The notes beneath the pieces were generated by a model. That model saw only the letters and a list, made by a program, of their open reading frames with translations. It ran no database searches and had not been told where the DNA came from. DNA of 64,000 nt from contig CAMIVO010000001.1 in NCBI GenBank assembly GCA_946401865.1, positions 10,026 to 74,025 of the forward strand, written 5' to 3'. The translations under genes and the position numbers were made by a program. Origin of the DNA: an uncultured Clostridia bacterium (GTDB lineage Bacteria; Bacillota; Clostridia; TANB77; CAG-508). Below are positions 3,057 through 56,073 of the stretch, one piece after another. The first letter of the stretch is position 1. Every line of letters begins with the position of its first letter.

Positions 3057-3057
3057 A

Positions 3058-28596: not shown

Positions 28597-28603
28597 TGTC
28601 GAA
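28597..28603 (+). promoter_or_regulatory. Candidate 0A box upstream of spo0A
   Basis: Exact TGTCGAA match; a second, weaker GTCGAAA lies on the opposite strand near 28665. Confidence 0.35.
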
Positions 28604-28731: not shown

Positions 28732-29547
28732 GTGAACGATAAAATAACAGTATTAATTGCAGATGACAATGAAGAATTTAGCAAAACATTAGCAACATAT
28801 CTTACAAATCAACAAGATATGGAAATTATTGGAATTGCCAAAGACGGCACAGAAGCACTAGATATAATAAAAGAAAAATCACCAGACGTAGCAATATTAG
28901 ATGTAATTATGCCACATTTAGATGGAATAGGAGTCTTAGAAAGATTAAATAGTAGTAATAGTTTAAGCAAAAAACCATTATGTATTATGCTTTCAGCAGT
29001 AGGACAAGACAAAATTACAGGAAAGGCTCTTGCTTTAGGAGCAGAGTATTATGTAGTAAAACCATTTGATATTGAATTGTTAATTCAAAGAATTAGAGAA
29101 ATTAAAAACTTTAAACCAAATGGATCAAATAGTTTTATTATAAATGAAACTAAAAGAACTCCTTACATAGATGTAAATTCAACTAAAACAAAAGATCAAC
29201 TAGAAGCGCTGGTTACTAATGTTATTCATGGTGTTGGAGTACCAGCACATATAAAAGGTTACCAATATTTAAGAGAAGCTATAATGCTTGTTGTAAATGA
29301 TATAGATGTTATTAATCAAATAACTAAAACTTTATATCCAGAAATAGCTCAAAAATTTGGAACCACACCATCAAGAGTAGAAAGAGCAATTCGCCACGCA
29401 ATAGAAGTTGCATGGGGTAGAGGCGAGGTAGCTTTGATGGAAAATATATTTGGCTATACGGTTTCAGCGGCAAAAGGCAAACCAACAAATTCAGAATTTA
29501 TTGCAATGATTGCAGATAAACTAAGATTAGAATTAAAATCAGCATAA
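28732..29547 (+). CDS. spo0A: Sporulation master regulator Spo0A
   Basis: 271 aa with a GTG start. Has a receiver domain (DDNEEF...DVIMPHLDG) and the Spo0A C-terminal HTH ([11 protein letters not shown]...[17 protein letters not shown]). Confidence 0.95.
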
Positions 29548-29726
29548 AAAATAAAAAAAACGGAAATTAAATTTTGTAGCATTATAATGCAAACGAAATA
29601 TTATTTCCGCTTTTTGTTGACTTTTTTAAGGAATTATATTATAATTTTTGAAAAATAAGTATTGGAGAACAAGTTAAATATTGAAGATATAGTCTAATTA
29701 CTTTATATAAAAAGGAGAGATGTATT

Positions 29727-30233
29727 ATGAGTAGTTTTGTCAAAAAAATTGACGTATCAAAAATAGAATTGATAGGATGGGAAAGTGAAAAAGTTCTTAG
29801 TGATGAAGAACTTCGAAGCAAAATTCCTGAAATGTTTTCAAGATTTTATGCTGACTTTGATTATTTATTAGCTAAATCAAATTTAATAGGTTGTACTATC
29901 AACTCTTCTGACGGAGTGTCATATTTCTTAGGAATGGATAAAGCTAAATTAAACGATAAAGATATAGAGGGTATTTTAAAAAGTGATGGAACATCACATA
30001 AAATTTTTAATATAAATAATTCAGATAGTTTTTCATATTTTGTTGAATGTTCAGATGAACCTGGTGATATTCATAAATATATAGATATGGAAAGAAATAA
30101 AGCTAAAGAAGCAGGAACAAGAATAACTGGAGATATTATAGAAAGTTATTTACCAGATGGAACATGTCATATTTATTTTCCTAAGAAAATTGGACCAGTT
30201 ACTAAAGAAATGCAAGAATTAGAACAAGAATAG
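29727..30233 (+). CDS. Hypothetical protein, possibly GyrI-like small-molecule-binding fold
   Basis: 168 aa. The pattern KIELIGWESEKVLS...IPEMFSRFY is reminiscent of GyrI-like/Cass2 proteins. Has its own TTGACT-17-TATAAT promoter near 29614-29642. Confidence 0.35.
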   Translation: MSSFVKKIDVSKIELIGWESEKVLSDEELRSKIPEMFSRFYADFDYLLAKSNLIGCTINSSDGVSYFLGMDKAKLNDKDIEGILKSDGTSHKIFNINNSDSFSYFVECSDEPGDIHKYIDMERNKAKEAGTRITGDIIESYLPDGTCHIYFPKKIGPVTKEMQELEQE

Positions 30234-30357
30234 ATTAAAAATTTTATTATAGCGGGACAATCCTGCCTTTTTATTTTTATAAACAAGTATTTTATTTTTT
30301 AAGAAAATTATAAATTCATATCTTAGAGATTAGTATAAAAAAGCTTTTTGATTATTG

Positions 30358-30386
30358 TTTACATATAAAGAAAATTTTGATATAAT
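30358..30386 (+). promoter_or_regulatory. SigmaA-type promoter P1 (drives the radical-SAM/ATP-grasp pair); duplicate of P2
   Basis: TTTACA 30358-30363, 17 nt, TATAAT 30381-30386. The 30-nt block matches 32844-32873 with 2 mismatches. Confidence 0.6.
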
Positions 30387-30437
30387 TAGCAAATGGATTA
30401 AAATAACATATATAAGAGATGATTAAAGGAAGTAAAA

Positions 30438-31517
30438 ATGAATATTAAAAAAAGAGAACTATGGGAATACAAATTGGATATATTATATCGTGGAATAAGT
30501 ATTAGTAAAAAATGTTTTGATACTTTAAAAAAGGGGATTAATAATCAAATTAATAATGATGATTATATTACAACTAAAGGTTTAATGATTGTTTTAGATA
30601 ATAAAATTTATGTAAATGCAGATATAAATGAGGAAAGCTATTTTCAAATAGATTATGAGGATGAACAATACATATTAAAATATAATAATAAATTAATTTG
30701 TAATATCAGAATAATCCAACCGCCTGAATTTGCATTAATGAGAAAAAAATTGAGCAGTGGAGAGTTATTAACTAATCTTATAAATATTCATGGTGATCGT
30801 GTAAGAATTCAACCAATTGAAGGATGTGCATTTAGGTGTGCATTTTGCAGTTTAAATATATTTAATTATAAAAAATATTCTATAGATATTTTAGATGAAG
30901 CATTTCAGTATGCATTAAATAATTGTAGTTTTGAGCATGTATTAATTAGTGGAGGAACACCTAAATTAAATCAAGAGGATTATACTTATTTAAATAATGT
31001 GTATCAATTTTTTGGTAAAAAATATGGGGATAAGATTCCGATAGATATTATGCTTGCACCAAGAGGATTAGAAATTAATGACAATAGTATTGAACAATAC
31101 GAAATATTCTTAAATAAATTAAAAGAATGGAATATAAGCGGATTATCAATAAATTTGGAATTATTTAATGATGAAATGAGAAAAAAATATATACCAAATA
31201 AGGACAATATAGGCAAATTAAATTATTTGAAATTTATTGAATTAGCAGTTAAAATTTTTGGAAAAGGAAATGTTAGATCATGCATTATTATTGGATTGGA
31301 AGAGATAAGTGATAGTTTGAAAGCAGTAGAAGAACTATCAAAAATTGGATGTATGCCTGTTTTATCTCCATATATTCCAATCAATAATACAATTAACAAA
31401 CCACGTCCGGAACTAACTAAAGAAGTCTTATTACAGGCAAAAAAAATTACAGACAATTATAGTATAGAGCTAGGTCCAAAATGTAATTCATGTAAACATA
31501 ATACAATTAATTTTTAA
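30438..31517 (+). CDS. Radical SAM enzyme with an ~125-aa N-terminal extension
   Basis: 359 aa with CAFRCAFC (CxxxCxxC) at about aa 129-136, a GGTP glycine-rich motif and C-terminal CNSCKH. Confidence 0.8.
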   Translation: MNIKKRELWEYKLDILYRGISISKKCFDTLKKGINNQINNDDYITTKGLMIVLDNKIYVNADINEESYFQIDYEDEQYILKYNNKLICNIRIIQPPEFALMRKKLSSGELLTNLINIHGDRVRIQPIEGCAFRCAFCSLNIFNYKKYSIDILDEAFQYALNNCSFEHVLISGGTPKLNQEDYTYLNNVYQFFGKKYGDKIPIDIMLAPRGLEINDNSIEQYEIFLNKLKEWNISGLSINLELFNDEMRKKYIPNKDNIGKLNYLKFIELAVKIFGKGNVRSCIIIGLEEISDSLKAVEELSKIGCMPVLSPYIPINNTINKPRPELTKEVLLQAKKITDNYSIELGPKCNSCKHNTINF

Positions 31518-31541
31518 ATATGTATAAAGGATATAAAATAA

Positions 31542-32675
31542 ATGAAAAAATATATATGGTTGGGTATAAGAGAGTCTGAAATACTATATACAGATTTTAT
31601 TGATAAGTCAATTACTATTTTTGGAAAAAATAATAAAAATCTTCAAAATGAATTAAAAAAAACGATTAACCATAATGCAATAAAAAATAATAATATTATT
31701 AATAAATTTTATCAAATGAATATAAATAAATGTTTAGAACTAAATAATAATGTAAAATTTATGTGTTATAGTCAAATTTATAATTATTATCTTATTAAAA
31801 AAAGCGGATTACTAGATAGTGTTATATGTCTTAATAATCAGAAATTAGTTAAGTTTGTACACGATAAATTTAAAGTAAAAGCATTTTTAAAAGAAGATAT
31901 ACCTATATTAAAATATACAATTATTAAAGGAGAAGAGTTTGAATATAAAAAACTAGCTAAACAATTTAATACGAATGAATTAGTTGCTCAAACTAGAAAT
32001 TGTTCAGGTGGCTTTGGGACTTTTATAATTGACAAAAATACAGACATAAAACTAAATAAAAAAGAAAATTATATGATTACAAAATATTGTACTAATAATT
32101 TATCTATAAATATAAGTGTATTAATATCAAATGGTGATATTTGTGTTTTACCTGGATCTATGCAAATAATAGAAAAAATAAATAATAGACTTATGTATAA
32201 AGGTAGTGATTTTATTGCTTATAGAGAATTAATTAGCAAACAAATAGATATAAAAGCAAAGCAGTATGCATATATAATAGCAGAAATTTTACAAAAAAAG
32301 GGTTATAGAGGATTATTAGGTATTGACATGATTGTTTTTGAAGATGATGTATATTTATCTGAAATAAATCCAAGATTTCAAAATTCAAGTTCTATAATAA
32401 ATAAGTCGTTAAAGGATAATAATTTGTTATCGCTTCAACAGCTCCAATATAATTGTTTTTTTGAAAAAGAGATTAAATTAAATAAATTTGATATTAATTA
32501 TTGTACATATATAAACGAATACGGTCAAATAAATAAAACGTTTAATATAAATAAAATTGAAAGTTGGGATTTAAATAATAAAATTTCAAAATATGAAGAT
32601 ATGAGTTATATTAGTACAGATGTCTATGATAAGTCTATATTATTGCATAATGGCTATAAAATAGGTAATAAATAG
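31542..32675 (+). CDS. ATP-grasp family ligase
   Basis: 377 aa with C-terminal LGIDMIVFEDDVYLSEINPRFQNS, typical of ATP-grasp Mg/ATP sites; starts 24 nt after the radical SAM gene. Confidence 0.7.
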   Translation: MKKYIWLGIRESEILYTDFIDKSITIFGKNNKNLQNELKKTINHNAIKNNNIINKFYQMNINKCLELNNNVKFMCYSQIYNYYLIKKSGLLDSVICLNNQKLVKFVHDKFKVKAFLKEDIPILKYTIIKGEEFEYKKLAKQFNTNELVAQTRNCSGGFGTFIIDKNTDIKLNKKENYMITKYCTNNLSINISVLISNGDICVLPGSMQIIEKINNRLMYKGSDFIAYRELISKQIDIKAKQYAYIIAEILQKKGYRGLLGIDMIVFEDDVYLSEINPRFQNSSSIINKSLKDNNLLSLQQLQYNCFFEKEIKLNKFDINYCTYINEYGQINKTFNINKIESWDLNNKISKYEDMSYISTDVYDKSILLHNGYKIGNK

Positions 32676-32700
32676 TATATAAATAATCTTGATGTAAAAC

Positions 32701-32802
32701 ATATTTGGTTATACAGTATCAAGCACAAAAGGCAAACCAACAAATTTAGAATTTATTGCAATGATTGCAGATAAACTAAGATTAGAATTAAAATCAGCAT
32801 AG
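32701..32802 (+). pseudogene. Orphan duplicate of the spo0A 3' end (last 33 codons plus stop)
   Basis: About 93 of 102 nt match 29446-29547 by manual alignment. Translates [33 protein letters not shown]. Confidence 0.9.
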
Positions 32803-32808
32803 TAATAA

Positions 32809-32832
32809 AAGATGTCGAAAGACATCTTTTTT
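32809..32832 (+). terminator. Rho-independent terminator behind the spo0A 3' duplicate
   Basis: AAGATGTC-gaaa-GACATCTT followed by TTTT. Confidence 0.8.
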
Positions 32833-32843
32833 ATATATATTTA

Positions 32844-32872
32844 TTTACATATAAGGAAAATTTTGGTATAAT
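32844..32872 (+). promoter_or_regulatory. SigmaA-type promoter P2 (nifS-like gene)
   Basis: TTTACA 32844-32849, 17 nt, TATAAT 32867-32872. Confidence 0.6.
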
Positions 32873-32914
32873 TTGGATAAAAGAATAATAATTTTAAAGA
32901 GATAAAAACAAGAG

Positions 32915-34060
32915 GTGATGTTTTTGAATAGTATTTATTTCGACAACAATGCAACTACAAAAATTGATGAAGAAGTATTAAATTCAATGATGCCATATTT
33001 AAAAGAAGAATATGGAAATCCAAGTAGTATTTATTCATTTGGTGCAAATGTAAAAGAAGAGATAGAAAAAGCAAGAAAAAGTGTTGCGGAATTATTAAAT
33101 GCAAAAACTGATGAGATAATTTTTACAAGTGGAGCAAGTGAAAGTAATACTACTGCAATTATGAATGCAGTAAGAAATAATCCAGAAAAAAAGCATATAA
33201 TTACAACAAAAGTAGAACACGCATCAATTATGGAAGCTATGAAGTATTTAGAACAAAAAGAAAACTACAAAGTTACATATTTATCAGTTGATAAACAAGG
33301 AAGAATTAACCTAGAAGAATTAAAACAATCAATAACAGAGAATACATGCTTAATTGCTGTTATGATGGCAAATAATGAAATTGGAAATATATATCCTATA
33401 AAAGAAATTAGTAAAATAGCAAAAGAAAACAACATATTATTTCATACTGATGCTGTTCAAGCAATTGGAAAAATTAGAATTGATGTAGAAGATTTACAAG
33501 TTGATACATTATCTTTTTCAGGTCATAAAATACATGCACCTAAAGGAATTGGAGTATTATACATAAAAAAAGATACTCCGTTTATTCCATTAATATTTGG
33601 ACATCAAGAAAAAAATAGAAGAGGTGGAACTGAAAATGTTCCATATATCATAGGACTTGGAAAAGCATGTGAACTAATTTTAAAAGATGAATATAAAAAG
33701 AATGAGAGAATACAATTTTTAAGAGATAAACTAGAAAATGAGATTAAACAAAACATCGAAGATATTGTTATATATGGAGATACCGAAAATAGAGTGCCAA
33801 ATACAATAAGTGTAGGTTTTAAAGGTGTAGATGCAATTCAGCTGATGCTTATGCTTGAAGGCCAAAATATATTGGTTTCTACTGGTTCAGCATGTAATTC
33901 TGAGATGGCAGAGCCTTCGTATGTTTTAACTGCTTGTAATGCCGATGTATGTAATTATAGTCCAATTAGAATAAGTTTAAATAAGTATAATACAGAAGAA
34001 GAAATAGATAGTTTTGTAAGAGTATTAAAAAATGTTATTAAAAATATGAGGAGGAAATAA
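32915..34060 (+). CDS. nifS: Cysteine desulfurase (NifS/IscS-like, class V aminotransferase)
   Basis: 381 aa with IYFDNNATT, the SFSGHKIHAPKG PLP-lysine motif and the GSACNS active-site Cys loop. Confidence 0.88.
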   Translation: MMFLNSIYFDNNATTKIDEEVLNSMMPYLKEEYGNPSSIYSFGANVKEEIEKARKSVAELLNAKTDEIIFTSGASESNTTAIMNAVRNNPEKKHIITTKVEHASIMEAMKYLEQKENYKVTYLSVDKQGRINLEELKQSITENTCLIAVMMANNEIGNIYPIKEISKIAKENNILFHTDAVQAIGKIRIDVEDLQVDTLSFSGHKIHAPKGIGVLYIKKDTPFIPLIFGHQEKNRRGGTENVPYIIGLGKACELILKDEYKKNERIQFLRDKLENEIKQNIEDIVIYGDTENRVPNTISVGFKGVDAIQLMLMLEGQNILVSTGSACNSEMAEPSYVLTACNADVCNYSPIRISLNKYNTEEEIDSFVRVLKNVIKNMRRK

Positions 34061-34062
34061 AT

Positions 34063-34665
34063 ATGTCTGTTCTAATAAATTTTAAAATATGTGATAATGC
34101 AAAAGAATGTGGAGGAATTGCAATTTGTCCAACAGGAGCACTAAAATGGAATGAAGAGAAAGAAACAATTGAAATAGATAATGACAAATGTATATCTTGT
34201 GGATTATGCCAAAATGAATGTCCAATAGGTGCAATAAGGGTAGCCAAAACTGAAGAAGAATACAAAAAAATAAAAGAAGAAATTGATAATGATCCTAGAA
34301 CTCAAAAAGACTTATTTGTTGATAGGTACGGAGCAGCACCTTTATCAGACTTTTTTATGCTCGACATTAATGAATTAAAAGATAAGATTAACAAAAATAA
34401 TAATATAATTGTAGAATTTTATAATGATGATTCTATTGAATGTTTATTAAAATCAATTCCTATAAAAGATATTGTTGAAAACTTTCCTGATAATACTTTG
34501 TTTTATAAAATTGAATGTAATGATGAGAATAAAAAGACTCTAAATATTAATGAATTACCAGCTATATTGGTATATAAAAATGGTGAAATTGCAGGGAAGA
34601 TAGAAGGCTATTATTCTGTTGACCAAAAAGAAGAACTATTTGAAAAAATTAATCAATTCATTTAG
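34063..34665 (+). CDS. 4Fe-4S ferredoxin domain fused to a thioredoxin-like domain
   Basis: 200 aa with an N-terminal CISCGLCQNECP cluster motif and a C-terminal Trx-like fold pattern (LPAILVYKNGE). Confidence 0.55.
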   Translation: MSVLINFKICDNAKECGGIAICPTGALKWNEEKETIEIDNDKCISCGLCQNECPIGAIRVAKTEEEYKKIKEEIDNDPRTQKDLFVDRYGAAPLSDFFMLDINELKDKINKNNNIIVEFYNDDSIECLLKSIPIKDIVENFPDNTLFYKIECNDENKKTLNINELPAILVYKNGEIAGKIEGYYSVDQKEELFEKINQFI

Positions 34666-34721
34666 AATTTATTATTTTTAAATGAATTGATTCACCTAAA
34701 TAAAATTAGGGGATATATAAT

Positions 34722-35261
34722 ATGAAACTGTTAATTAATGTAAGCAACAGAGAGAAAAACTGTTATAAAATTTTAAGTGAGATTAGAAATGATAATGATT
34801 ACGTATTTTCTTTATCTGATAATAAAATAAAACCATGCAATGGATGTAGTGATTGTAAAAAGGGCTTAGTAAAATATTGTTCAATAAATGATGATATGCA
34901 AGAATTATATAAACAAATGTCCAAATATGAAAAAATTGTTATTGCAACTCCAATATATATGAATTTTTTATGTGGTCAATTGAAAATCTTAATTGATAGA
35001 TTAAGATCACATTCTATGAATCCAGAACTACTAAAAAATAAGAATCTATATTTGATAATAACTGGAATGTTGAGTGAAGAAGAAAATAAAGAAGTTATTG
35101 ATATGATAACAAAATATTTTGAGAGTCTAACTGAATTTATGGAATTTAATTTTCATTATGTAGGATATCTTTCAAGTGGTAATAGTGAAGAAATTGATGC
35201 TATTGAAAAAAATAATACAAACTATAAGGAAATTGTGGAAAATATGAAAAATGAGATATAA
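34722..35261 (+). CDS. Flavodoxin-like NAD(P)H-dependent FMN reductase family protein
   Basis: 179 aa with CNGCSDCKKG...IATPIYMNFLCGQLKILIDRL, typical of the FMN_red / iron-sulfur flavoprotein family. Confidence 0.55.
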   Translation: MKLLINVSNREKNCYKILSEIRNDNDYVFSLSDNKIKPCNGCSDCKKGLVKYCSINDDMQELYKQMSKYEKIVIATPIYMNFLCGQLKILIDRLRSHSMNPELLKNKNLYLIITGMLSEEENKEVIDMITKYFESLTEFMEFNFHYVGYLSSGNSEEIDAIEKNNTNYKEIVENMKNEI

Positions 35262-35377
35262 TTTACTTGAAAATTATATGAATTTACACAATCAAAAACA
35301 TCATATAAATACACCACCTCATATAATACGAATGCTATTATATAAAGAAACAATGTATTAATTTTAGGAGAAAAAAT

Positions 35378-36340
35378 ATGGATATACAGGACCCTCAATT
35401 AAAAAGAATTCATGAATTTATAGAAGAACTTGAAACAAAATTAAAAGATTTACCAGATAATATTGAAGTAAAAGAAACAGATAATATTTCCAAATCTTTA
35501 TATCCTGAATATTGTGATTTAAATAAAGAAAGGATAGAGAAAAGAATATTTAAGTTAATTAGTTTGTTTAAAAGAATGAAAAAATGGGATGGACAGAAAC
35601 TACAAGAAGGAAAAAAGTATATAATAACAGAAATAGCACATATTGAATATGACTTAAATTATTTACTAAAACATGGTACACAAAATCCAAGAAATGGCTT
35701 TATAAATAGTTTAAAAGGAAAAGAAATAATAAATCAACCTCCAATTTATGAATATCCATATTCAACAAATGAATATTTTAATGAATGGAGAGAAAGAATA
35801 ATAGACTATTATATTAAGAAATACGGAGGAAATCCACTAAGAAGAATTAAATTAAGAAGACTAATGATACCAGCTACCATGGGTGAGAATTATCCAGATT
35901 TAGTTGAAGAAGTTATTTTTTTATCAACAGATAATATTTTAAGAAGAATGAATATTAGAGATTTTAAAAAATATGTTATGAATAAAAATAATGAACATAT
36001 TAAAGTGTTAATAATTGGGCCATCAAGGTATAAAGGTTTTAATAAATACACATATGATTTACAAGCGGATAATTGCAGTACGATTGAGCAAATTGTTTTA
36101 TACAATGGGATAGAAATAATATATCCATTAGATGAGTTATACAATCTAAAATCAATTGTTTTACCACCAACAGTTCAATACATAGAACCAAGAGCTTTTT
36201 ATATTTGTAATTGTTTAGAAAGTATTATATTGCCAGAGAAAATAAGAATAGGAGAAGAAGCTTTTGAAGGAACCAAACTTGTAGTCGATAGTAATGGAAG
36301 AGTTAGTAAGGTTAAACAAGATGATTTAAAGAGAAAATAA
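35378..36340 (+). CDS. Protein with C-terminal BspA-type leucine-rich repeats
   Basis: 320 aa; the IVLPPTVQYIEPRAFYICNCLESIILPEKIRIGEEAFEG pattern fits. Confidence 0.55.
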   Translation: MDIQDPQLKRIHEFIEELETKLKDLPDNIEVKETDNISKSLYPEYCDLNKERIEKRIFKLISLFKRMKKWDGQKLQEGKKYIITEIAHIEYDLNYLLKHGTQNPRNGFINSLKGKEIINQPPIYEYPYSTNEYFNEWRERIIDYYIKKYGGNPLRRIKLRRLMIPATMGENYPDLVEEVIFLSTDNILRRMNIRDFKKYVMNKNNEHIKVLIIGPSRYKGFNKYTYDLQADNCSTIEQIVLYNGIEIIYPLDELYNLKSIVLPPTVQYIEPRAFYICNCLESIILPEKIRIGEEAFEGTKLVVDSNGRVSKVKQDDLKRK

Positions 36341-36466
36341 AAAAATTTTATATAATTTCGTTAAGTAAAGCAAAAAACAATAAAGAAAATAAACAAGAAA
36401 AATTATATAAATGGCTTGAATTTATAAATAATCTAGAGAAGGAAACTCAGAAAGGACCAAAAAAAC

Positions 36467-37363
36467 ATGATAATCATCACATCAGGAAGAGGAAATATTG
36501 ATATTGATGCATATGGCGGAGCAATTGCATATGCATATTTACTTAATTTAAAAGGAATAAAAGCAAAAGCAGTTTGTACAGGAAACTTAAATGAAAGCAT
36601 AACACCTAGTATGCTTAAATTAAAATACAAACTAGATGATTACACTAAAAATGAAGATGACCAATTTATTATAGTTGATCTTTCTTATAAAGATTTCTTT
36701 GATAAAATAGTTGAAGAAGATAAAGTAATTGAAATAATTGATCATCATTATGGATATGAAGAATATTGGAGAAAAAAACTTGATAAAAAAGCAATAATAG
36801 AGCAAGTAGGTGCAATGGCAACCATTATTGTAGAAATGTATGAAAAAGATAATTTATTAGAAAAAATGCCTGTTGATATTGCAAAACTTTTAATGGCTGC
36901 AATTTTAGATAATACTTTAAATTTAAAATCAAATGTTACAACTAACAGAGATATTGAGAGCTATAATAAGTTACAAAACATAGTTCAAGATGAAAATTTT
37001 GCTCAAAATTATTTTATGGAATGTCAACAAGTAATAGAAAAAGATTTTTCTCAAGCTATAAGAAATGACATAAAAATTGAAGATATTGATTATTCATTGC
37101 CAAGAGTAATTGGACAATTAGTTTTATGGGATAAAACCCTTCTTTGGAAAAATAAGGAAATAATAAAAGAAGTTCTAAACGAAAAAGGCGATAAATGGAT
37201 AATGAATGTGATTTGCCTAAAAGAAGGAAAAAATTACATAATGGCTTCTAATAAGGAAGTAATGAAAAATTTAGAAGAACTATTAGAAACAAAAGCTAAT
37301 AATGAAATTATTGAATTAAATAAATTGATGCTAAGAAAAGAACTAATGAAAAAGGCAATGTGA
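36467..37363 (+). CDS. DHH-family phosphoesterase
   Basis: 298 aa with an N-terminal DIDAYGG motif and the IIDHH motif. Confidence 0.65.
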   Translation: MIIITSGRGNIDIDAYGGAIAYAYLLNLKGIKAKAVCTGNLNESITPSMLKLKYKLDDYTKNEDDQFIIVDLSYKDFFDKIVEEDKVIEIIDHHYGYEEYWRKKLDKKAIIEQVGAMATIIVEMYEKDNLLEKMPVDIAKLLMAAILDNTLNLKSNVTTNRDIESYNKLQNIVQDENFAQNYFMECQQVIEKDFSQAIRNDIKIEDIDYSLPRVIGQLVLWDKTLLWKNKEIIKEVLNEKGDKWIMNVICLKEGKNYIMASNKEVMKNLEELLETKANNEIIELNKLMLRKELMKKAM

Positions 37364-49272: not shown

Positions 49273-49908
49273 ATGGATGTAAATAATAACTTAAGAAACT
49301 ATATAGAACAAAATATTTTTCCACTATATGAGAAAAATTATATTGGTGATGGAATAGATAGAATTAAATATGTTATAAAACGAAGTGAAAATATAATTAA
49401 AGAAAATGATTTAAAAGTGAATGATGATATCTTATATACAGCTATAAGTTATCATGATATTAGAAAAAATAATGATGAAAAAAATCATGAAAAGATTAGT
49501 GGAGAGATAATGTTTAAAGATGAGTTTTTGGCAAGCTATTTTACATTAGAGCAAAGAAAAATTATTCAAGAGGCAATAGAGGACCAAAGAGCAAATGCGG
49601 AAAACGAGCCTAGAAATATATATGGAAAAATATTATCTTCTGCCTCTAGAAACTCATCTGTTGAACAATGTTTAAAAAGATCCTATATTTATGGTAAAAA
49701 GAAAAATCCAGACTTATCTGATGTAGAAATTTTTGAGGGTGCATATAAGGTGCTTTCTAATAAGTTCGGAGAAAACGGATATGCTAAATTCTATTTTAAA
49801 GACACCACATATGAAAATTTTCTAAAAGATATAAGGCAATTGCTTTCTGATAAAAATAAATTTATTGAAGCTCAAAGAGCATGTATTGCCAATCTAAATC
49901 TAATATGA
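49273..49908 (+). CDS. HD-domain phosphohydrolase
   Basis: 211 aa with the YHDIRK H..HD pattern. Confidence 0.65.
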   Translation: MDVNNNLRNYIEQNIFPLYEKNYIGDGIDRIKYVIKRSENIIKENDLKVNDDILYTAISYHDIRKNNDEKNHEKISGEIMFKDEFLASYFTLEQRKIIQEAIEDQRANAENEPRNIYGKILSSASRNSSVEQCLKRSYIYGKKKNPDLSDVEIFEGAYKVLSNKFGENGYAKFYFKDTTYENFLKDIRQLLSDKNKFIEAQRACIANLNLI

Positions 49909-49921
49909 GGGGCAACATAAA

Positions 49922-50593
49922 GTGGATGCTATTAATGCACAATTAAAAGAATATATCGAAAAAAGCATATTTCCAAAATATAATAAATATTATTCACATG
50001 GTATGATACATATTAATAGTGTTATTAATAATATGTTGATGCTTGCAAATTATTATAACTTAGACCAAAATATGGCATATGTAATAGCCAGTTATCATGA
50101 TATAGGTTTAAATGTAAATAGGGAAAATCACGAATATGAATCTGGTAAAATTTTAGAAAGTGAAATAGAATTAAAAAAATACTTTACACCTGAACAAATT
50201 GAAGTAATGAAACAAGCAGTTGAAGATCATAGAGGATCTAGAAAAATAAGACCAAGAAATATTTATGTTGAATGTGTTTCTGACTCTGACAGGGATTTCG
50301 ATATAAAAATTCATATAAAAAGACAGATTTCAACATCAATTAAGAATTATCCACAAAAAAAATCTTTTGATGAACATTTTAAAAATTGCTATGAGTATGC
50401 CTGCGAAAGAATTAATGATAATGGTAAATTTAATCTATGGACAAATAATCCTATTTTAGTTGAAAGAAGAGATAATTTTCAAAAGGATTTCTTAAATAAA
50501 GAATATGCTAAATTGCTTTACAAAGAAGAATGGGATAGAATCTCAGCAGATGGTACAAAAGAAAAAATAATAAATTTTTATGAAGATTATTAA
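49922..50593 (+). CDS. HD-domain phosphohydrolase (tandem paralogue)
   Basis: 223 aa with a GTG start; shows HINSV...YHDIGL...EDHRG. Confidence 0.65.
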   Translation: MDAINAQLKEYIEKSIFPKYNKYYSHGMIHINSVINNMLMLANYYNLDQNMAYVIASYHDIGLNVNRENHEYESGKILESEIELKKYFTPEQIEVMKQAVEDHRGSRKIRPRNIYVECVSDSDRDFDIKIHIKRQISTSIKNYPQKKSFDEHFKNCYEYACERINDNGKFNLWTNNPILVERRDNFQKDFLNKEYAKLLYKEEWDRISADGTKEKIINFYEDY

Positions 50594-50611
50594 AAAGCAA
50601 TTTAAAAAATC

Positions 50612-50800
50612 TTGACAAATACTGAAATATTAAGTACAATAAATAAAGATATTATGAGATAATTAAATATAAAGATAAAAATATGGAAACCAAGGGAGTA
50701 TTTTCTTTGATTTCCATATTTTTATTGTTATAAAAAAACTTTATAATACAAAATCAAAGATTCTTTCTGGTTTCAAATATATTAAAAGGAGGATAATAAA
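50612..50800 (+). promoter_or_regulatory. Promoter plus conserved structured leader L1 with an intrinsic terminator (candidate attenuator/riboswitch or sRNA)
   Basis: TTGACA 50612-50617, 17 nt, TACAAT 50635-50640. Terminator ATATGGAAACCAAGG...CTTTGATTTCCATAT plus T-run at 50681-50726, then a second hairpin before the RBS. Near-duplicate at 55883-56073. Confidence 0.55.
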
Positions 50801-51679
50801 ATGATTGATTTACATATACATACAACTTGTTCAGATGGACAATTAACTGTAAAGCAATTACTAAAAAAAGCAAACAGTGAAGGAATATCTGTAATTTCTT
50901 TTTGTGATCACAATGTTTTAGGTGCATATCAAGTATTAGATAATATGGATTTAAGTAAATACAGAACAAAAATTATAACAGGTATAGAATTCGATTTTGT
51001 ATTTAAACATAAAGACTTTCACATGTTGGGATATGATTTTGATTGGAAAATGATGAATAAAAGTAATTTAATAAATACCAAAAGTGACGAAGAAATTATT
51101 CAAGAGGAAAATAAAAAATTAACCTTTTTAAAAGAAGTTTGTAGAAAACAAGGAATTAAATTTGATGAAGATTTAATTATAAGTAGAAAAAATGATAAAT
51201 CAAGCACTGTTATGAAATATCATATGATGGAATTTAAAGAAAATGATAAGATTTTAGATGAAATGCTAGGTAAAAATAGAGAAAAAAGTTTTGCAAGAGG
51301 CTATGTACATAATCCTAATAGTCCATTCTTTATAGATGAAACAATTGGATTACCCACAGCAATTGATGTAGCAAATTTAATACATTCATGTGGTGGTAAG
51401 GTAGTTTTGGCACATCCTTTTGACTATAAGGATATAAATCACAAACAATATATTCAGGATATCTATAATTTAGGCATTTTAGATGGTATAGAATGTTTAC
51501 ATACAAGACATGGAATTGAACAAATTGAGTATATTAAGTGTTTTTGTCAAAAAAACAATTTATTGATAACAGGTGGAAGCGATTTTCATAGAGAACTAAA
51601 ACAAACCTTAGGATATGGTGCTAGTGGTACTATTCCTATAACTGAAGAATATTGCTTAAAAAATGTAGATAATTTTTAA
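50801..51679 (+). CDS. PHP-domain phosphoesterase
   Basis: 292 aa with MIDLHIHTTCSDG and CDHN motifs. Confidence 0.8.
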   Translation: MIDLHIHTTCSDGQLTVKQLLKKANSEGISVISFCDHNVLGAYQVLDNMDLSKYRTKIITGIEFDFVFKHKDFHMLGYDFDWKMMNKSNLINTKSDEEIIQEENKKLTFLKEVCRKQGIKFDEDLIISRKNDKSSTVMKYHMMEFKENDKILDEMLGKNREKSFARGYVHNPNSPFFIDETIGLPTAIDVANLIHSCGGKVVLAHPFDYKDINHKQYIQDIYNLGILDGIECLHTRHGIEQIEYIKCFCQKNNLLITGGSDFHRELKQTLGYGASGTIPITEEYCLKNVDNF

Positions 51680-51793
51680 ACAAAAAAAACTAAGATAAAT
51701 CAAATTATAAAATAAAATTGAAAACAAATTGCTTTAAATGTTGTTTTTTATGTATATATGTGATAAAATACATAAAAAAGGAGGCAGAAAAAA

Positions 51794-52120
51794 ATGAGTG
51801 ATGGTAAAAATAAACTAATAATAAAAAATTTAATTAGTTTTATTCTTTCATTTTTCCCTAGATTTAGTATGATATTATTTGCATTATGTCTAAAATCAGA
51901 AAATATTGATTTCAAAGATGCAATGGATAATGCTTTTGGGACAATAGTTTTTGGACCTTTTGCATTAATTATATTATGTATGAGTTTATTAATTGCTTTA
52001 CCAGCTTTTATAATGACGATAAAATATATGATAGAAATTATAAAAAGCAAGAAAAAAATAGTAATTCCGATAATAGAAATTTTGATTTATATATTAGAAA
52101 TTATTAGATTTATAAAATAA
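51794..52120 (+). CDS. Small membrane protein
   Basis: 108 aa with three predicted hydrophobic helices. Confidence 0.45.
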   Translation: MSDGKNKLIIKNLISFILSFFPRFSMILFALCLKSENIDFKDAMDNAFGTIVFGPFALIILCMSLLIALPAFIMTIKYMIEIIKSKKKIVIPIIEILIYILEIIRFIK

Positions 52121-52170
52121 TTATATATGAATTTAATCTTTATTCAAAAATAAAAAAAGGAGTTTTTTTA

Positions 52171-52898
52171 ATGATTAAAAAATAGCAAAACCTATAAATT
52201 TAGTATACACTGGTCAAAATATTAATCTTCCAAAAAGTTTAAAGGATAAAATTGAAGATTTTTGGAGTAAAGCAATTTTAGAAACTCCAACGTTATATAA
52301 TGGAGAAGATTTTGCAGTTGAAGAAGTCACAGAGGCAGAAAATGAAATTATTATAAAAGTTTCTAAAACAAATTATGCTCACTATTTATATGACGAAAGA
52401 ATTGGAATAGATGATGAAAAATATAGATGTATTTGTCCATGGAGTGGAATTTTACTTTTAACAAACGATAATTATTGGGTGTTTGGACAAGCAAGTGAAA
52501 AAACTTCTTTTCCAAATGGTTTCCAATTATCTGGTGGTGGAATTGATAAAAAGGACATAACAGGCTCAAATATTGATTTAATTCAAAATTTAAAGCGCGA
52601 ATTAAAAGAGGAAGTGAATCTTAATTTAAATGAAATAAATTATAAATTTCAGTACATCGAATATCCAAATACTAAAAGAAATGCTTATGGATTTATTGCA
52701 GTTGGTAAATTAAATATGTCAAAAAACGAATTGCAAAATCATTTTAAACAATATAAAGAATTTTTAGAAAAGAATAATTTAGAAGTAGAATTCAATAATT
52801 TAATATTTCTTAAAAAGGGTGAGGCTATTAAGGAATTAGATTCATATACTAATCCTAAAAGGGTCTATTTAAGAGATTTGATTTCTGAAGTTGAATGA
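52171..52898 (+). pseudogene. NUDIX-like hydrolase with a frame break in an A6 run just after the start codon
   Basis: GGAG RBS and ATG 52171, then atg att aaa aaa TAG. One extra A would give MIKKIAKPINLVYTGQN..., joining the long frame that contains the track ORF 52479-52898 (GGGID...LKRELKEEVNL). Confidence 0.6.
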
Positions 52899-53469
52899 GA
52901 TAAAATCAAAAGAAGTGAAAAGACAATATTTGAAAAAAATAGCAGAGGAGCTAAAACATAATAAGATGGAATTATGGGAAGTATTAGATAAAAATGGAAA
53001 TAAGACAGGTGAAATAATGGAAAAAAATGATGAAACATTTTTTGAAAAAGGCTTTTGTCATTTAGGAGCAGAGATATGGATTATAAATAGTAAAAATAAA
53101 TTTTTAATTCAAAAAAGAGCTAGCAACAAAAAAATTTTTCCCAACATGTGGGCTATGATGGGAGGTTCTGTTATTGCAGGTGAAAACCCAAAGCAAACAA
53201 TTGTAAGAGAGGCTAAAGAAGAGTTGGATATTAATATTGATATTAATAAATTAGAATTTATAACCAAATTTAGAGTAGACTCACTTATAGTAGAAACATA
53301 TTTATTAAGAAATGATTTTAAGATAAAGAACATGAAGTTAAAAAAAGATGAAGTATCTGAAGTAAAATGGATGACACTAAAAGAAATTGAAAATTTAGTT
53401 GATAAAGAACAATTTTTTAAAAATAGATGGAAATATGTAAAAAAATATTTAGATAATTTATATATCTAA
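52891..53469 (+). CDS. NUDIX hydrolase
   Basis: 192 aa with Nudix box GGSVIAGENPKQTIVREAKEELDI. Confidence 0.8.
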   Translation: MNEIKSKEVKRQYLKKIAEELKHNKMELWEVLDKNGNKTGEIMEKNDETFFEKGFCHLGAEIWIINSKNKFLIQKRASNKKIFPNMWAMMGGSVIAGENPKQTIVREAKEELDINIDINKLEFITKFRVDSLIVETYLLRNDFKIKNMKLKKDEVSEVKWMTLKEIENLVDKEQFFKNRWKYVKKYLDNLYI

Positions 53470-53545
53470 AAATTCAACTTTGAACCAAAAACAGCGAGAG
53501 AGTACAGGAAACAAGGATGTAAGATTGTGCAAAATGAAATATACG

Positions 53546-53565
53546 ACATTGTACAAAATAAAAGT
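53546..53565 (+). repeat. Motif M copy 1 (ACATTGTACAAAATAAAAGT), with a half-copy at 53524-53539
   Basis: One of six copies of ACWTTGYAYAAAATNAAAGT, all on the plus strand upstream of cassette genes. Confidence 0.7.
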
Positions 53566-53629
53566 TTCCGTGCATTGCGATGCTGAAAAATCAATAGTTA
53601 CATAATATTGATATCAGACTGATAGATAG

Positions 53630-53658
53630 TTGTAATTATCAGTCTTTTGTTATATAAT
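53630..53658 (+). promoter_or_regulatory. SigmaA-type promoter (shared module with 60210-60238)
   Basis: TTGTAA-17-TATAAT. The block TAGTTGTAATTATCAGTYTTTTGTTATATAATAA is repeated upstream of the deaminase gene. Confidence 0.55.
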
Positions 53659-53727
53659 AAGTAAAAATTAAGAACATAAGTAATATTGCGCACAGGCAGA
53701 AGATTTAAATACTAAAAGGAGATTTTT

Positions 53728-54339
53728 ATGATAATTATAGAGGAAAATAACATAAATAAAGTATGGAAAAACGCATTAGAAAAGCTATATAAAAATGGGT
53801 ATATACCACAAGATTCAAGATTTTTTAAAATGGATACATTAATAATCGAAATGAATGAGCCTGAACTTTGCGAACCAGATTCCCAATTTCCAATGGATAA
53901 AGCTAATATAGATATTATTAATAACTTTATTATTACTGGAGAAAATGAGAAAAAAGTATGCCATGAATGGACCAAACTATATTTTCATAGATTATTTGAT
54001 AATCCCAATTCTCAAATTGAATATATGATAGAAAGAATAAAAAAAGATAGAGTAGGTATTGCATGTAATTGGATAAAAGATGACCAAAAAGCTGAAATCA
54101 AACCTTGCATGCTAAGTATTACTGCAAGTAACGAAAATGGAAAAGTTAATTTCCAATTACATTCAAGAGCATGTAATATATATGACAAGTTACTCATGAA
54201 TCTTCAAGAATTTATTACGGTACAAAAATATATTGCATCAAGATGCAGCTTGAAGATAGGAAGATTCACCATGTTTATAGATTATGCACAGATTTCAGTA
54301 AAAGACAAAAAGAAAGTAGAAGATATAATTTCTAAGTAA
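53728..54339 (+). CDS. Divergent thymidylate-synthase-fold protein (ThyA / dCMP-hydroxymethylase-like)
   Basis: 203 aa. RVGIACNW...KPCMLSITASNENGKVNFQLHSRACN...MNL aligns with ThyA RRIIVSAWN...[25 protein letters not shown]...FNI. Confidence 0.6.
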   Translation: MIIIEENNINKVWKNALEKLYKNGYIPQDSRFFKMDTLIIEMNEPELCEPDSQFPMDKANIDIINNFIITGENEKKVCHEWTKLYFHRLFDNPNSQIEYMIERIKKDRVGIACNWIKDDQKAEIKPCMLSITASNENGKVNFQLHSRACNIYDKLLMNLQEFITVQKYIASRCSLKIGRFTMFIDYAQISVKDKKKVEDIISK

Positions 54340-54394
54340 TTCATTTTATTTTTTTAGATTTAATTATAATTTATCAAAAAAATGGAGAAAAAAT

Positions 54395-54943
54395 ATGGAC
54401 AATTATATAATAATTCATGGTTCATATGGTAATCCATATAAAAATTGGATTCCATATTTAAAAAAGAAATTAAGTATTAGAAAACTAAATTGTATTATAC
54501 CAAGTTTTCCAACGCCACACAATCAAAACTATAATTCTTGGGAAACAGTACTTTTAGCTTACTTTAAGGTTGGATATATAACTGAGAATACTACCATTAT
54601 AACACATAGCTTAGGCAGTATCTTTGTTGTAAAATTTTTAATAGAAAACAAAATTAAAGTGAAAAGAATTATAACTGTTGCAGGTTTTAATAAAATAAAA
54701 TATGATGAAGATAATTCATTATATGATTCTTTTTATATGGAAGATAACGAATTGAATAAAATTGTTGATTTATGTGAAGATATTTATTGTTTTTATTCTG
54801 ATAATGATCCATACGTCAATATTGACAAAGCAATGCAGTTTGCTAAATTAATAAATGGAAAAGGAATTTTAATAAAAAACGCAGGGCATTTTAACGAAAA
54901 GTCTGGATATATTGAATTTAAAGAATTATTAAAATATATTTAA
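54395..54943 (+). CDS. YdeN/RBBP9-type serine hydrolase (alpha/beta fold)
   Basis: 182 aa with IIIHGSYGNP, the nucleophile motif THSLGS and C-terminal D...GHF. Confidence 0.65.
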   Translation: MDNYIIIHGSYGNPYKNWIPYLKKKLSIRKLNCIIPSFPTPHNQNYNSWETVLLAYFKVGYITENTTIITHSLGSIFVVKFLIENKIKVKRIITVAGFNKIKYDEDNSLYDSFYMEDNELNKIVDLCEDIYCFYSDNDPYVNIDKAMQFAKLINGKGILIKNAGHFNEKSGYIEFKELLKYI

Positions 54944-55075
54944 ATTAAGAATATAAAATAATAGTTCTAAATAGCTTAAAAGATAAAAACATTACAAGAA
55001 GAGAGGGCTCAAATAAAAATGGAGTGTGGAAGATTATAGAAAAACACTAATTTATAACTGCTTTTATATAGGAGT

Positions 55076-55714
55076 ATGAATAACATGGATGATATAATAA
55101 AAAATACAATCAAATTTTATGTTTTATGCAATAAATTAAAGGATTTAATTAGAAAAGGTCCATTAACATGGAATGTAAAAAGAGAAAGAATAGAAAGTGT
55201 AGCAGAACACATTTATGGTGTTCAAATGTTAGCAATTTCAATTTATTTTCAATTCAATTATAAGTTAGATTTAAATAAAGTTATATTTATGCTTGCAATT
55301 CACGAATTAGAAGAAATTAAAATAGGTGATTTAGCTTTTTATGAAACAACTCGTGTAGATAAATTAATAAATGGTAGGAAAGCTACAGAATATATTTTAG
55401 AAAATTTCAGTGGAAAAGAAGAAATATTAAATTTATTAGACGAATATAATGAAAGAAAAACTGAAGAAGCAATTTTTGCATATCATTGTGATAAATTAGA
55501 ATGTGATATTCAAATGAAACTATATGATCAAGAAGGATGCCTTGATTTAAATAATCAAACAAAAAATCCAATAATAAATCTTCCTAGTGTTAGAAAAGTT
55601 CTAGATAGTGAGAAAAATATTTCTAATGCTTGGATTGAATTTGATAGAGATAAATATGAAAATGACCCTATTTTTATTGATATCATCAATTGGCTTAAAG
55701 ATAATAAGATTTAA
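55076..55714 (+). CDS. YfbR-like HD-domain 5'-deoxynucleotidase
   Basis: 212 aa with ESVAEHIYGV...AIHELEEIKIGDL. Confidence 0.7.
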   Translation: MNNMDDIIKNTIKFYVLCNKLKDLIRKGPLTWNVKRERIESVAEHIYGVQMLAISIYFQFNYKLDLNKVIFMLAIHELEEIKIGDLAFYETTRVDKLINGRKATEYILENFSGKEEILNLLDEYNERKTEEAIFAYHCDKLECDIQMKLYDQEGCLDLNNQTKNPIINLPSVRKVLDSEKNISNAWIEFDRDKYENDPIFIDIINWLKDNKI

Positions 55715-55750
55715 AAAAGTATGATTTGATTTAGATTATATATAAAATAG

Positions 55751-55814
55751 GGAATAGAAGTTGATTTGCAATTTTTTGAAAAATATAATTTTTAAAATTG
55801 CAAATTATTTTATT
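55751..55814 (+). terminator. Terminator module H copy 1
   Basis: GGAATAGAAG box, then ATTTGCAATTTT...AAAATTGCAAAT stem followed by a T-rich tail. Confidence 0.6.
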
Positions 55815-55882
55815 AATATAGAAAAATGATTTTCAAAAGATATATTAAATAAAATATTGACATCGGAAAAAACGCAAATCTA

Positions 55883-56073
55883 TTGAAAAATCGTAAAATA
55901 TATGTATAATAAATAAAGTTGTAATGAGATAATTAAATATAATAATGTAGATATGGAAACCAAGGGAGTGTTCTCTTTGATTTCCATATTTTTATTGTAA
56001 AAAATCACACTTTATAATAAGAAATTAAAGCTACTTTCTGGTTTTAAATATATTAAAAGGAGGATTAAGGAAT
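55883..56073 (+). promoter_or_regulatory. Promoter plus conserved structured leader L2 (duplicate of L1)
   Basis: TTGAAA-16-TATAAT (55905-55910). Terminator at 55951-55996 is identical in its stem to L1, and the second hairpin shows a C-to-T change that keeps pairing (C-G becomes U-G). Confidence 0.55.

Follow-up and report, generated by a model that had tools for sequence, protein, structure and literature searches.

How can a small piece of foreign DNA settle at the very end of a key sporulation gene, leave that gene undamaged and bring no recombinase with it, and what might the enzymes that it carries do? These questions are raised by the spo0A–nifS interval of an uncultured gut Clostridium (GTDB lineage Bacteria; Bacillota; Clostridia; TANB77; CAG-508), in which a cassette for a radical S-adenosylmethionine (SAM) enzyme and an ATP-grasp enzyme lies between two copies of the spo0A 3′ end. 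The DNA analysed, referred to here as the window, is a stretch of 64,000 nt (positions 10,026 to 74,025, forward strand, of CAMIVO010000001.1, assembly GCA_946401865.1), the source being a single metagenome-assembled contig of 83,872 bp. A preliminary description of the window, made from its letters only, had taken the arrangement for a Campbell-type or homology-mediated insertion. Comparison with related genomes leads us, with moderate confidence, to a similar view: a circle of 3,255 bp, carrying two enzymes for a small-molecule pathway, was inserted by homologous recombination through a single crossover in the last 54 nt of spo0A.

Unoccupied sites in close relatives

Loci of relatives carry the analysis labels L010 to L157, among which L148, L149 and L151 are conspecific with the window and L157 comes from a sister species. 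The conspecific sites were reached via homologues of NifS and not via a scan with Spo0A, the best match of which among 185,579 species representatives has 78% amino-acid identity. Within 8 kb of spo0A in the 80 best Spo0A relatives, nifS, mscL and the cassette were all not found, and exact-sequence look-ups of the window Spo0A (with either V or M as first residue) and of the radical SAM protein gave no match. The preliminary description had suggested that related strains might hold empty sites; they are indeed found in L148, L149 and L151, where the DNA is 97% identical over 3.7 kb and the cassette is absent.

The gene order in L148 to L156 is cotJC–cotJB–cotJA–orf223–mscL–spo0A–LOG-family gene (219 aa)–nifS, with NifS 97% identical, and the sister species L157 (NifS 91%) has the same order. 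In L148, L149 and L151, spo0A is followed by a terminator, a promoter, the LOG gene and nifS. These conspecific flanks align to the window in three blocks, namely up to 29556, 32689–32890 and 32927 onward, and the window segments 29557–30343 and 30388–32688 have no counterpart in the conspecific contigs. Base composition does not clearly mark the insert, which has 22.6% G+C in a window of 25.4% and a host of about 25%. On the right flank, nifS is 94% identical to that of L148 at the DNA level, and the annotated homologue starts three codons later. The LOG-family gene of the relatives (203–219 aa, PF03641), which stands 4–10 nt upstream of nifS (L148 3993–4739; L157 7379–7990), is absent from the window between the resident promoter, P2, and nifS, so that P2 lies about 40 nt from nifS (32873–32927).

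Two chimeric copies of the spo0A end

The insert lies between two direct copies of the spo0A end, copy A terminating the gene itself and copy B standing downstream of the cargo (Table 1). The figure of 93 identical positions of 102 given earlier for 29446–29547 and 32701–32802 was reproduced, and the repeat turned out to be longer, starting at 29434 and 32689 with 103 of 114 positions identical. Its longest uninterrupted run of identity covers 54 nt (29493–29546, partner 32748–32801), and the window has exactly two occurrences of a 74-nt core, where shuffled sequences lead one to expect none. Translation of both ends bore out the stop codons reported before, TAG in copy B and TAA in the resident gene; copy B contains, in addition, an in-frame TAA at 32695–32697. 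The Spo0A protein of the window is identical to that of L148 except for K154E, and its C-terminus is the same.

The origin of each part of the repeat was followed by aligning copies A and B with L148, L149 and L157 and counting matches per segment. In the 5′ part, copy A agrees with L148 at 45 of 47 positions (resident type), whereas copy B agrees with L148 at 37 and with L157 at 41 of the 47 (foreign type). Over the stop codon and terminator, the relation is inverted: copy A matches L148 at 20 of 44 positions (foreign), and copy B at 35 of 36 (resident), against 32 of 36 for copy B and L157. In the promoter segment, the counts are 31/59 for copy A and L148, 49/53 for copy B and L148 (resident), and 43/53 for copy B and L157. 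The shared core between the two sides is the same in both copies at 65 of 66 positions, and the divergence of copy B is correspondingly uneven, with nine differences in the first 39 nt and one in the next 75. Judged by these alignments, copies A and B are reciprocal chimeras of resident and foreign sequence, exactly the pattern to be expected when a circular molecule and the chromosome undergo one reciprocal exchange. The Campbell-type interpretation thus gains support from both sides, since reciprocal chimeric direct repeats flank the insert and an unoccupied site is present in close conspecific relatives.

Table 1. Features of the spo0A–nifS interval (window coordinates)
Feature	Position	Strand	Basis or remark
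spo0A, intact; last part attributed to incoming DNA	28732–29547	+	TIGR02875, 380 bits
Repeat copy A, attL-like junction: resident spo0A to the left, foreign from stop TAA onward	29434–29547	+	Alignment to L148
Identical run of 54 nt, interval holding the crossover	29493–29546		Resident- and foreign-type differences on opposite sides in the two copies
Putative cassette-borne terminator, predicted to end the spo0A transcript now	29550–29618	+	Hairpin then U-run; no counterpart in conspecific contigs
Promoter-like TTGACT-17-TATAAT before the 168-aa open reading frame	29617–29645	+	11/12 consensus match; consensus match only
Orphan open reading frame, 168 aa, part of incoming DNA	29727–30233	+	Open reading frame map
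Weak terminator-like hairpin behind the 168-aa open reading frame	30252–30276	+	z = −1.1, alone not significant
P1, copy of the native promoter behind spo0A in relatives; predicted driver of the radical SAM and ATP-grasp genes	30344–30387	+	Sequence match
Radical SAM enzyme, 359 aa, N-terminal beta-rich domain (residues 1–120)	30438–31517	+	PF04055, NF045502
ATP-grasp enzyme, 377 aa, predicted to be co-transcribed with the radical SAM gene	31542–32675	+	PF02655, PF02222; 24-nt gap, no terminator between
Repeat copy B, attR-like junction: foreign spo0A fragment to the left, resident from TAG onward	32689–32802	+	Alignment to L148 and L157
Putative resident spo0A terminator, predicted to end the cassette operon now as well	32807–32830	+	Kept in L148, L149 and L157
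P2, putative resident promoter; before LOG–nifS in relatives, directly before nifS here	32841–32873	+	49/53 to L148; TTTACA-17-TATAAT
nifS, cysteine desulfurase, resident right flank	32915–34060	+	PF00266, 3e-93; TIGR03402, 500 bits

A proposed route of insertion

The incoming circle would have carried, in this order, a 114-nt fragment of the spo0A 3′ end, a TAA stop with its own terminator, an open reading frame (ORF) of 168 aa, the promoter P1, and the radical SAM and ATP-grasp genes. A single reciprocal exchange within 29493–29546 would then insert a unit of 3,255 bp. The resulting arrangement is seen in the sequence: the coding end of spo0A is unchanged, its stop TAA and terminator coming from the incoming DNA, and the displaced resident end (TAG, terminator and P2) lies downstream of the cargo, where it would terminate the P1-driven operon and still drive nifS. 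Having no terminator of its own, the cargo operon would read through the spo0A fragment into the resident spo0A terminator.

Ordinary homologous recombination is most likely the catalyst. It is favoured because the spo0A fragment and P1 both resemble one locus of a diverged relative, the foreign fragment (the 5′ part of copy B) and P1 both leaning to the L157 type. The insert could accordingly be pictured as a segment of the variable region downstream of spo0A in such a relative; a segment flanked by direct repeats could loop out as a circle and re-enter the chromosomes of relatives by homology, with no recombinase needed. A linear fragment entering by homology-facilitated illegitimate recombination was also considered and was rejected, as by that route no foreign spo0A fragment can come to lie on the right of the cargo.

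Transcription signals around the insertion

A hairpin followed by a U-run is found behind both spo0A ends (29550–29618, −18.7 kcal/mol, z = −4.6; 32802–32834, −12.9 kcal/mol, z = −5.1), the second being the clean terminator that had been reported behind copy B. The promoter block at 30358–30387 recurs, as reported, at 32844–32873 with two mismatches, where no recurrence is expected by chance, and both copies consist of TTTACA-17-TATAAT with a TG ahead of the −10 element (extended −10). The earlier assignment of these promoters holds in part: P1 does stand ahead of the radical SAM gene and P2 ahead of nifS, but P1 sits inside the incoming DNA, and the idea that a duplicated promoter brackets the insert has to be given up. 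P1 agrees with the native promoter of L157 at 35 of 37 positions and with that of the conspecific L148 at 85%; its agreement with the resident P2 is 30/33, or 32/37 across the span used for L157. By its sequence, P1 is a sister-lineage version of the native promoter.

The locus is also rich in perfect Spo0A boxes (TGTCGAA). Three of the five in the 64-kb window, in the whole of which 1.6 are expected, are located here, at 28597–28603, 32813–32819 and 32939–32945 (minus strand), that is, upstream of spo0A, inside the resident terminator just upstream of P2, and in the first nifS codons. The cassette promoter P1 has no 0A box upstream of it.

The region behind spo0A as a landing site

The absence of an integrase, claimed in the preliminary description, withstood a dedicated search: tblastn with the tyrosine integrase and the resolvase of L039 returned nothing from the 64-kb window (best E = 1.6), and no recombinase domain was detected by Pfam or NCBIfam in the three insert ORFs. 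Lacking an integrase or recombinase of its own, the insert does not qualify as an autonomous integrative element, be it an integrative and mobilizable element (IME), an integrative and conjugative element (ICE) or a prophage. It does correspond to a cis-mobilizable element (CIME), which is defined as an attL/attR-flanked element without integration and transfer genes (PMC5704250), in having the repeats 29434–29547 and 32689–32802 at its ends and no integrase.

Other genomes show that the window is not alone in this respect. Homologues of tyrosine integrases (PF00589) lie 170–220 nt downstream of the spo0A stop in L018, L019, L039, L041 and L077, and integrase fragments are found behind spo0A in L080, L071, L093 (Paenibacillus) and L033. 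In L039, the integrase gene opens a 6.5-kb element that begins 216 nt after spo0A and also has a resolvase; a direct repeat of 506 bp, 97% identical (2894–3399 and 9425–9930), reaches from the spo0A end across the intergenic region to nt 154 of the tyrosine integrase gene, which suggests tandem accretion, a complete element being joined by what is left of another. L043 holds an insert of 1,662 bp, the sole cargo of which is a transglutaminase-like ORF, with no integrase and with spo0A-end repeats of 196 nt that are 94% identical; beyond its right repeat copy lies native flank in synteny with L027. Across Clostridia, mobile DNA has thus landed repeatedly in the region right behind spo0A, and no description of spo0A as an attachment site was found in the searchable literature.

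These elements lend substance to the main rival explanation, in which the cassette is a decayed or hitchhiking CIME-type element that entered site-specifically, its attP mimicking the spo0A 3′ end and its tyrosine integrase acting in trans or having been lost. One integrase family recurs behind spo0A in five species, with fragments in four more; the integrase-bearing element of L039 is flanked by spo0A-end repeats; L043 offers a second integrase-less insert of matching layout; and the definition of a CIME fits both the flanking repeats and the missing integrase (PMC5704250). Nevertheless, we regard this route as doubtful. Neither the insert nor the window contains an integrase, and the cassette arms have no sequence in common with the integrase elements. 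Among the integrase-bearing loci, L018, L019, L041 and L077 are devoid of any spo0A-end repeat of at least 15 nt within 8 kb, so that the att core may be short or intergenic, and the repeat of L039 includes the 5′ end of the integrase gene, as expected of tandem accretion and not of a clean att site. Moreover, a native-type promoter copy inside the element is not accounted for. With the att core unmapped, the arms unrelated and the window free of integrase, the site-specific route is not preferred.

Two further observations concern the sequence around these sites. Some 50 nt ahead of their integrase genes, L039 (3150–3200) and, at equivalent positions, L019, L018, L041 and L077 share the motif ATAAAC-N8-9-TTTATTG. 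The last 54 nt of spo0A hold both half-sites in swapped order, TTTATTG-N12-ATAAAC, which is too short and too AT-rich to be taken for an att core.

The cassette proteins

The radical SAM protein belongs to its superfamily by PF04055 (38.3 bits against a gathering score of 29.5), and the cluster motif reported near residue 129 is confirmed as C130-x3-C134-x2-C137. These three cysteines, C352 and H354 are invariant among 43 homologues, at least 90% of which also have C305 and C349. An SAM-binding ISGGTP stretch is present, and the AlphaFold model (predicted local distance difference test (pLDDT) score 95) has the radical SAM core fold; the N-terminal domain of 120 residues matches nothing. The sole NCBIfam cutoff that the protein passes is that of NF045502 ('variant_rSAM', no assigned function), with 130.3 bits against 125 over profile positions 5–331 of 357. 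All 43 aligned homologues match this family, and 42 of them also match TIGR04043 weakly.

TIGR04043, the MSMEG_0568/NitD family, is nevertheless not the family of the window protein, which scores 58.6 bits against its cutoff of 303.7, and the nitrilase, GNAT, flavoprotein and aminoimidazole ribonucleotide (AIR)-synthase-like neighbours of the Nit1C context are all absent at the window locus. NF045502 is a sister of the NitD family of Nit1C clusters. Lysine 2,3-aminomutase (KamA) is excluded as well, with 23.6 bits against 199; its structure 2a5h matches at E = 0.009 over 70 residues only and falls outside the top 50 structural matches. The nearest solved relatives by profile are, marginally, ThiH, MqnE and HydG, and viperin comes at rank 49 of the structural matches, on the strength of the generic core. 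PF13186 occurs in 0 of the 43 homologues, which sets the protein apart from the SPASM/twitch maturases of ribosomally made peptides that are modified after translation (RiPPs).

The ATP-grasp protein is likewise a clear member of its superfamily, by PF02655 (46.3 bits against 23.2) and PF02222 (31.4 against 27), and both K109 and the Mg/ATP motif E274-x-N276-P-R278 are invariant. Its model (pLDDT 92) finds its best structural matches in PurK, biotin carboxylase and PurT (template modeling (TM) score about 0.6, E = 2.5e-14; probability 1.0 for PurK and biotin carboxylase), and the best profile match is 3ax6 (E = 8e-7), carbamoyl-phosphate synthetase being near as well. PurK itself (N5-carboxy-AIR synthetase, TIGR01161) is far off at 34.1 bits against 318.4. 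Sequence and model together indicate an enzyme of the PurK/carbamoyl-phosphate-synthase-like type and not of the graspetide type.

Structure searches of PDB and of viral models recovered only generic radical SAM and ATP-grasp cores for the two enzymes, and PADLOC, PHROGs and PDB sequence searches gave nothing specific for any of the three cassette proteins. The preliminary description, which could assign neither enzyme to a named subfamily, was right in this: Pfam, NCBIfam, structure and profile searches put neither in a characterised subfamily, and the possibility that it had left room for, that both are members of well-characterised housekeeping families, was not realised.

For the third protein, encoded by the orphan ORF of 168 aa, searches of Pfam, NCBIfam, PHROGs and PADLOC gave no family at a significant level, the only match being PbeC at 13.5 bits (E = 0.005). 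Among 1.84 billion representatives, it has one other cluster only, at 77% identity. That relative and a radical SAM homologue (from a cluster of at least 90% identity) probably share one contig, since the longest contig of the former and the contig of the latter are both 1,856 bp long.

The pair as a module and its possible function

To place the two enzymes, 64 loci with a radical SAM homologue were surveyed, the neighbours being clustered and the loci dereplicated at 90% identity into 45 groups. The ATP-grasp gene of the window's cluster adjoins the radical SAM gene in 22 of 37 distant groups (27–43% identity), which come from environmental bacteria and archaea; many of the unpaired ones are on contigs too short to judge. 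This adjacency indicates that the pairing is old and functional, not an accident of insertion: it is a widely distributed two-gene module that was not created by the event in the window. The close homologues of the window ATP-grasp enzyme (52–55%) are also paired, in the opposite gene order, with a radical SAM protein of NF045502 type that is 29% identical; with this second branch, both gene orders are represented.

The neighbours of the pair vary. Aspartate carbamoyltransferase adjoins it in seven distant groups (TIGR00670, above cutoff), the most distant groups have an sll0787-type AIR-synthase-like gene adjacent, as in Nit1C clusters (PMC8567248), one subgroup adds an ABC-F ATPase, a GNAT protein, a PaaK-like ligase and a RaSEA-like radical SAM enzyme, and some distant homologues neighbour nSTAND NTPases. 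In the closest radical SAM groups other than that of the window, the neighbours are guanylate-kinase-like, NUDIX, HD, metallophosphoesterase, GNAT or SPASM radical SAM genes.

Several loci of the survey show variations in their own right. Just upstream of an ATP-grasp/radical SAM pair, a CA/AC tract (L010 7758–7934, with equivalents in L011 and L012) reads as seven, six and three Thr-His repeats in contigs that are otherwise near-identical, and may be a phase-variable switch. In L013 (9159–10576) and L014, the radical SAM partner is divided over two ORFs, one of 102 aa for the N-terminal part and one of 314 aa, representing either a pseudogene or a natural split between N-terminal domain and core. 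In one environmental homologue (L109 8059–9825), the ATP-grasp protein has a second radical SAM-like domain fused to its C-terminal side, which gives weak matches of MoaA/SPASM-maturase type at residues 340–465.

As to function, the two enzymes probably form a two-step small-molecule pathway. The radical SAM enzyme would carry out a radical rearrangement or bond formation on a small molecule, after which the ATP-grasp enzyme would form an acyl- or carboxy-phosphate and couple it to an amine. Amino acids are the substrates of the nearest radical SAM relatives, which by analogy point towards an amino acid here as well; the ATP-grasp fold and the neighbouring genes (aspartate carbamoyltransferase, guanylate-kinase-like, NUDIX, HD) point in the same indirect manner towards nucleotide precursors. 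The earlier guess of a modification followed by ATP-dependent ligation is a reasonable suggestion. A more far-reaching idea can be put forward tentatively, as a possibility that falls short of an even chance: the pair may be a self-sufficient, horizontally mobile pathway for a new metabolite, in which a radical rearrangement or C–C bond formation on an amino-acid or nucleotide precursor is followed by ATP-dependent carboxylation or ligation, and which would reach from gut Clostridia to candidate-phyla bacteria and Asgard archaea, the window holding it as an integrase-less cassette at the spo0A end with a borrowed native promoter.

It is unlikely that the cargo serves instead in RiPP maturation, or in anti-phage defence through a modified nucleotide. 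ATP-grasp and radical SAM enzymes do occur together in some RiPP clusters (PMC8939145), but no small ORF is conserved across the non-redundant loci, in keeping with the lack of a precursor-peptide ORF noted at the outset, SPASM, twitch and RRE domains were not detected, and the ATP-grasp protein is of the PurK/carbamoyl-phosphate-synthase type. A defence role could be read into the position of the cargo on mobile DNA at an insertion hot spot, into the guanylate-kinase-like, NUDIX, HD and metallophosphoesterase neighbours of close radical SAM homologues, and into the nSTAND NTPases beside some distant ones. Against it, neither enzyme matches a PADLOC model at E ≤ 1, so that neither belongs to a catalogued defence system, the similarity to viperin is generic, and a search of 2.9 million viral contigs returned no relatives for the two enzymes. 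The literature search yielded nothing relevant on this pair or on a defence system made of radical SAM and ATP-grasp enzymes. A model with a RiPP precursor was separately tried and rejected, as the small ORFs cluster between near-identical contigs only.

Weighing the interpretation

Several facts weigh against the insertion of a small-molecule cassette by a single homologous crossover. The integrated state is known from a single metagenome-assembled contig, and, since it is the integrated form that is observed, the circular intermediate is deduced from it. Of 80 related species, 5 have a tyrosine integrase gene some 200 nt past spo0A and 4 others have remnants of one, and the two integrase-less inserts at the spo0A end, in the window and in L043, could equally mean a dedicated site-specific system. 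The absence of the LOG gene is a separate indel; because the crossover alone does not account for it, it constitutes a second difference from the relatives and needs a second event. Concerning the cargo, the window is the only one among the eight closest radical SAM groups (57–100% identity) to have an adjacent ATP-grasp gene, and the pairing is therefore not obligatory. Finally, the structural matches of the cargo are to generic cores, with TM scores of 0.45–0.6, and the substrates proposed here are candidates.

An artefact of assembly would remove the insertion altogether: a free circle, or the allele of a second strain, might have been threaded into the contig via the shared repeat of 54–76 nt. 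Such an error could arise in a metagenome-assembled contig of this kind, as the identical core exceeds common assembler k-mers, and the other contigs with cassette genes are only 0.7–2.1 kb long, as if assemblies broke at the repeats. We nonetheless consider it very unlikely. Unique sequence makes up both the junction at which the ATP-grasp gene meets the foreign spo0A fragment and the one at which resident spo0A meets the foreign terminator, which means that the cassette physically carries a spo0A end; a 3.3-kb circle without a replication gene would not persist unless integrated; and L043, a separate assembly, shows a matching architecture. An origin in situ, by local tandem duplication and divergence with the cassette ancestral and deleted in the 'empty' relatives, is the least credible of all, for although the spo0A–nifS interval is mosaic in this clade, with LOG, methyltransferase and other genes coming and going, the divergence of copy B is too sharply uneven for simple decay of a local duplicate, its divergent part is nearer to the sister species than to the resident allele, as foreign DNA would be, and the sequence past the stop of copy A is unrelated to the conserved native terminator.

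Other features of the window

Beyond the cassette, the region past nifS (34060–36470) is also mosaic when compared with L149 (4471–5145) and L157 (9142–9800). The conspecific contigs have a 224-aa methyltransferase between nifS and a ferredoxin–thioredoxin fusion gene, which is absent in the window; the window has ORFs of 179 and 320 aa ahead of a DHH gene, and the sister species L157 is without both. Farther on, 49273–62379 is a one-directional run of small ORFs that by eye are of nucleotide-hydrolase type, comprising three HD-like, one PHP-like, two NUDIX-like, a metallophosphoesterase-like and a deaminase-like ORF. A 52-nt motif (beginning TATACGACATTGTACAAAATAAAAGT) occurs four times, at 53540, 56707, 60143 and 61346, and a leader of about 160 nt is repeated at 50631–50794 and 55901–56065. 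The gene types of this run, as assigned by eye, resemble the neighbours of radical SAM homologues in related gut genomes. A scan of the full window with Rfam brought zero families to the gathering score.

Significance and comparison with known systems

The locus presents a clean natural case in which a tiny cassette without a recombinase enters the terminus of an essential regulatory gene and leaves the gene undamaged. The incoming DNA would bring a new gene end and terminator, while its own operon would make use of the resident terminator. The novelty lies in the spo0A terminus being hit repeatedly, in a minimal plug-in that borrows a native promoter, and in a cargo that is a conserved module, an uncharacterised radical SAM/ATP-grasp pair of two genes only that is sister to the equally unexplained NitD/NitF pair. 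On the other hand, insertion by such a mechanism is familiar, there are many uncharacterised radical SAM families, and nothing in current understanding is overturned.

With Campbell-type (insertion-duplication) integration, the cassette shares the single reciprocal crossover, the chimeric direct repeats, the intact target gene and the empty conspecific site. It differs in that the event is natural and not engineered, the circle being deduced, and in that the incoming homology, broken by the 168-aa ORF, takes in the downstream promoter as well as the gene end. Elements at the 3′ ends of genes are exemplified by the ICESt1/CIME family at fda of Streptococcus thermophilus. Like CIMEs and IMEs at the 3′ ends of protein genes, the cassette is small and has no integration or transfer genes, and related species have integrase-bearing elements at the matching locus, one of them in tandem with a remnant; unlike CIMEs, it has neither a cognate integrase that was found nor a mapped att core, and it carries a copy of a chromosomal promoter. 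The skin element in sigK and its relatives break up the reading frame, and a recombinase of their own removes them in the mother cell. The window shares with them the tie between mobile DNA and a key sporulation gene, whereas spo0A is never interrupted here and no recombinase is present.

The cargo can be compared with three systems. To PurK/carbamoyl-phosphate-synthase-like enzymes, the ATP-grasp protein is similar in its three-domain ATP-grasp architecture and its intact ATP/Mg motifs, and dissimilar in having 10–14% identity and no purine-operon context at the window locus. In the Nit1C cluster, NitD, a radical SAM enzyme of the MSMEG_0568 family, occurs with NitF, an AIR-synthase-like ATP enzyme (PMC8567248). 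As in the window, a radical SAM clade is paired there with an ATP-dependent enzyme related to enzymes of the purine pathway; the window partner is an ATP-grasp protein, whereas NitF has the PurM fold, and the score for TIGR04043 is far below its cutoff. In pyrrolysine biosynthesis, the radical SAM amino-acid mutase PylB is followed by the ATP-grasp ligase PylC. The window pair has the same two-gene logic of radical SAM and ATP-grasp enzymes, and ThiH, HydG and MqnE, the nearest solved relatives by radical SAM profile, belong to the same broad clade as PylB. The resemblance is one of logic only, as the pylD, pylS and pylT context is absent and no PylB or PylC model is among the NCBIfam matches at E ≤ 0.01.

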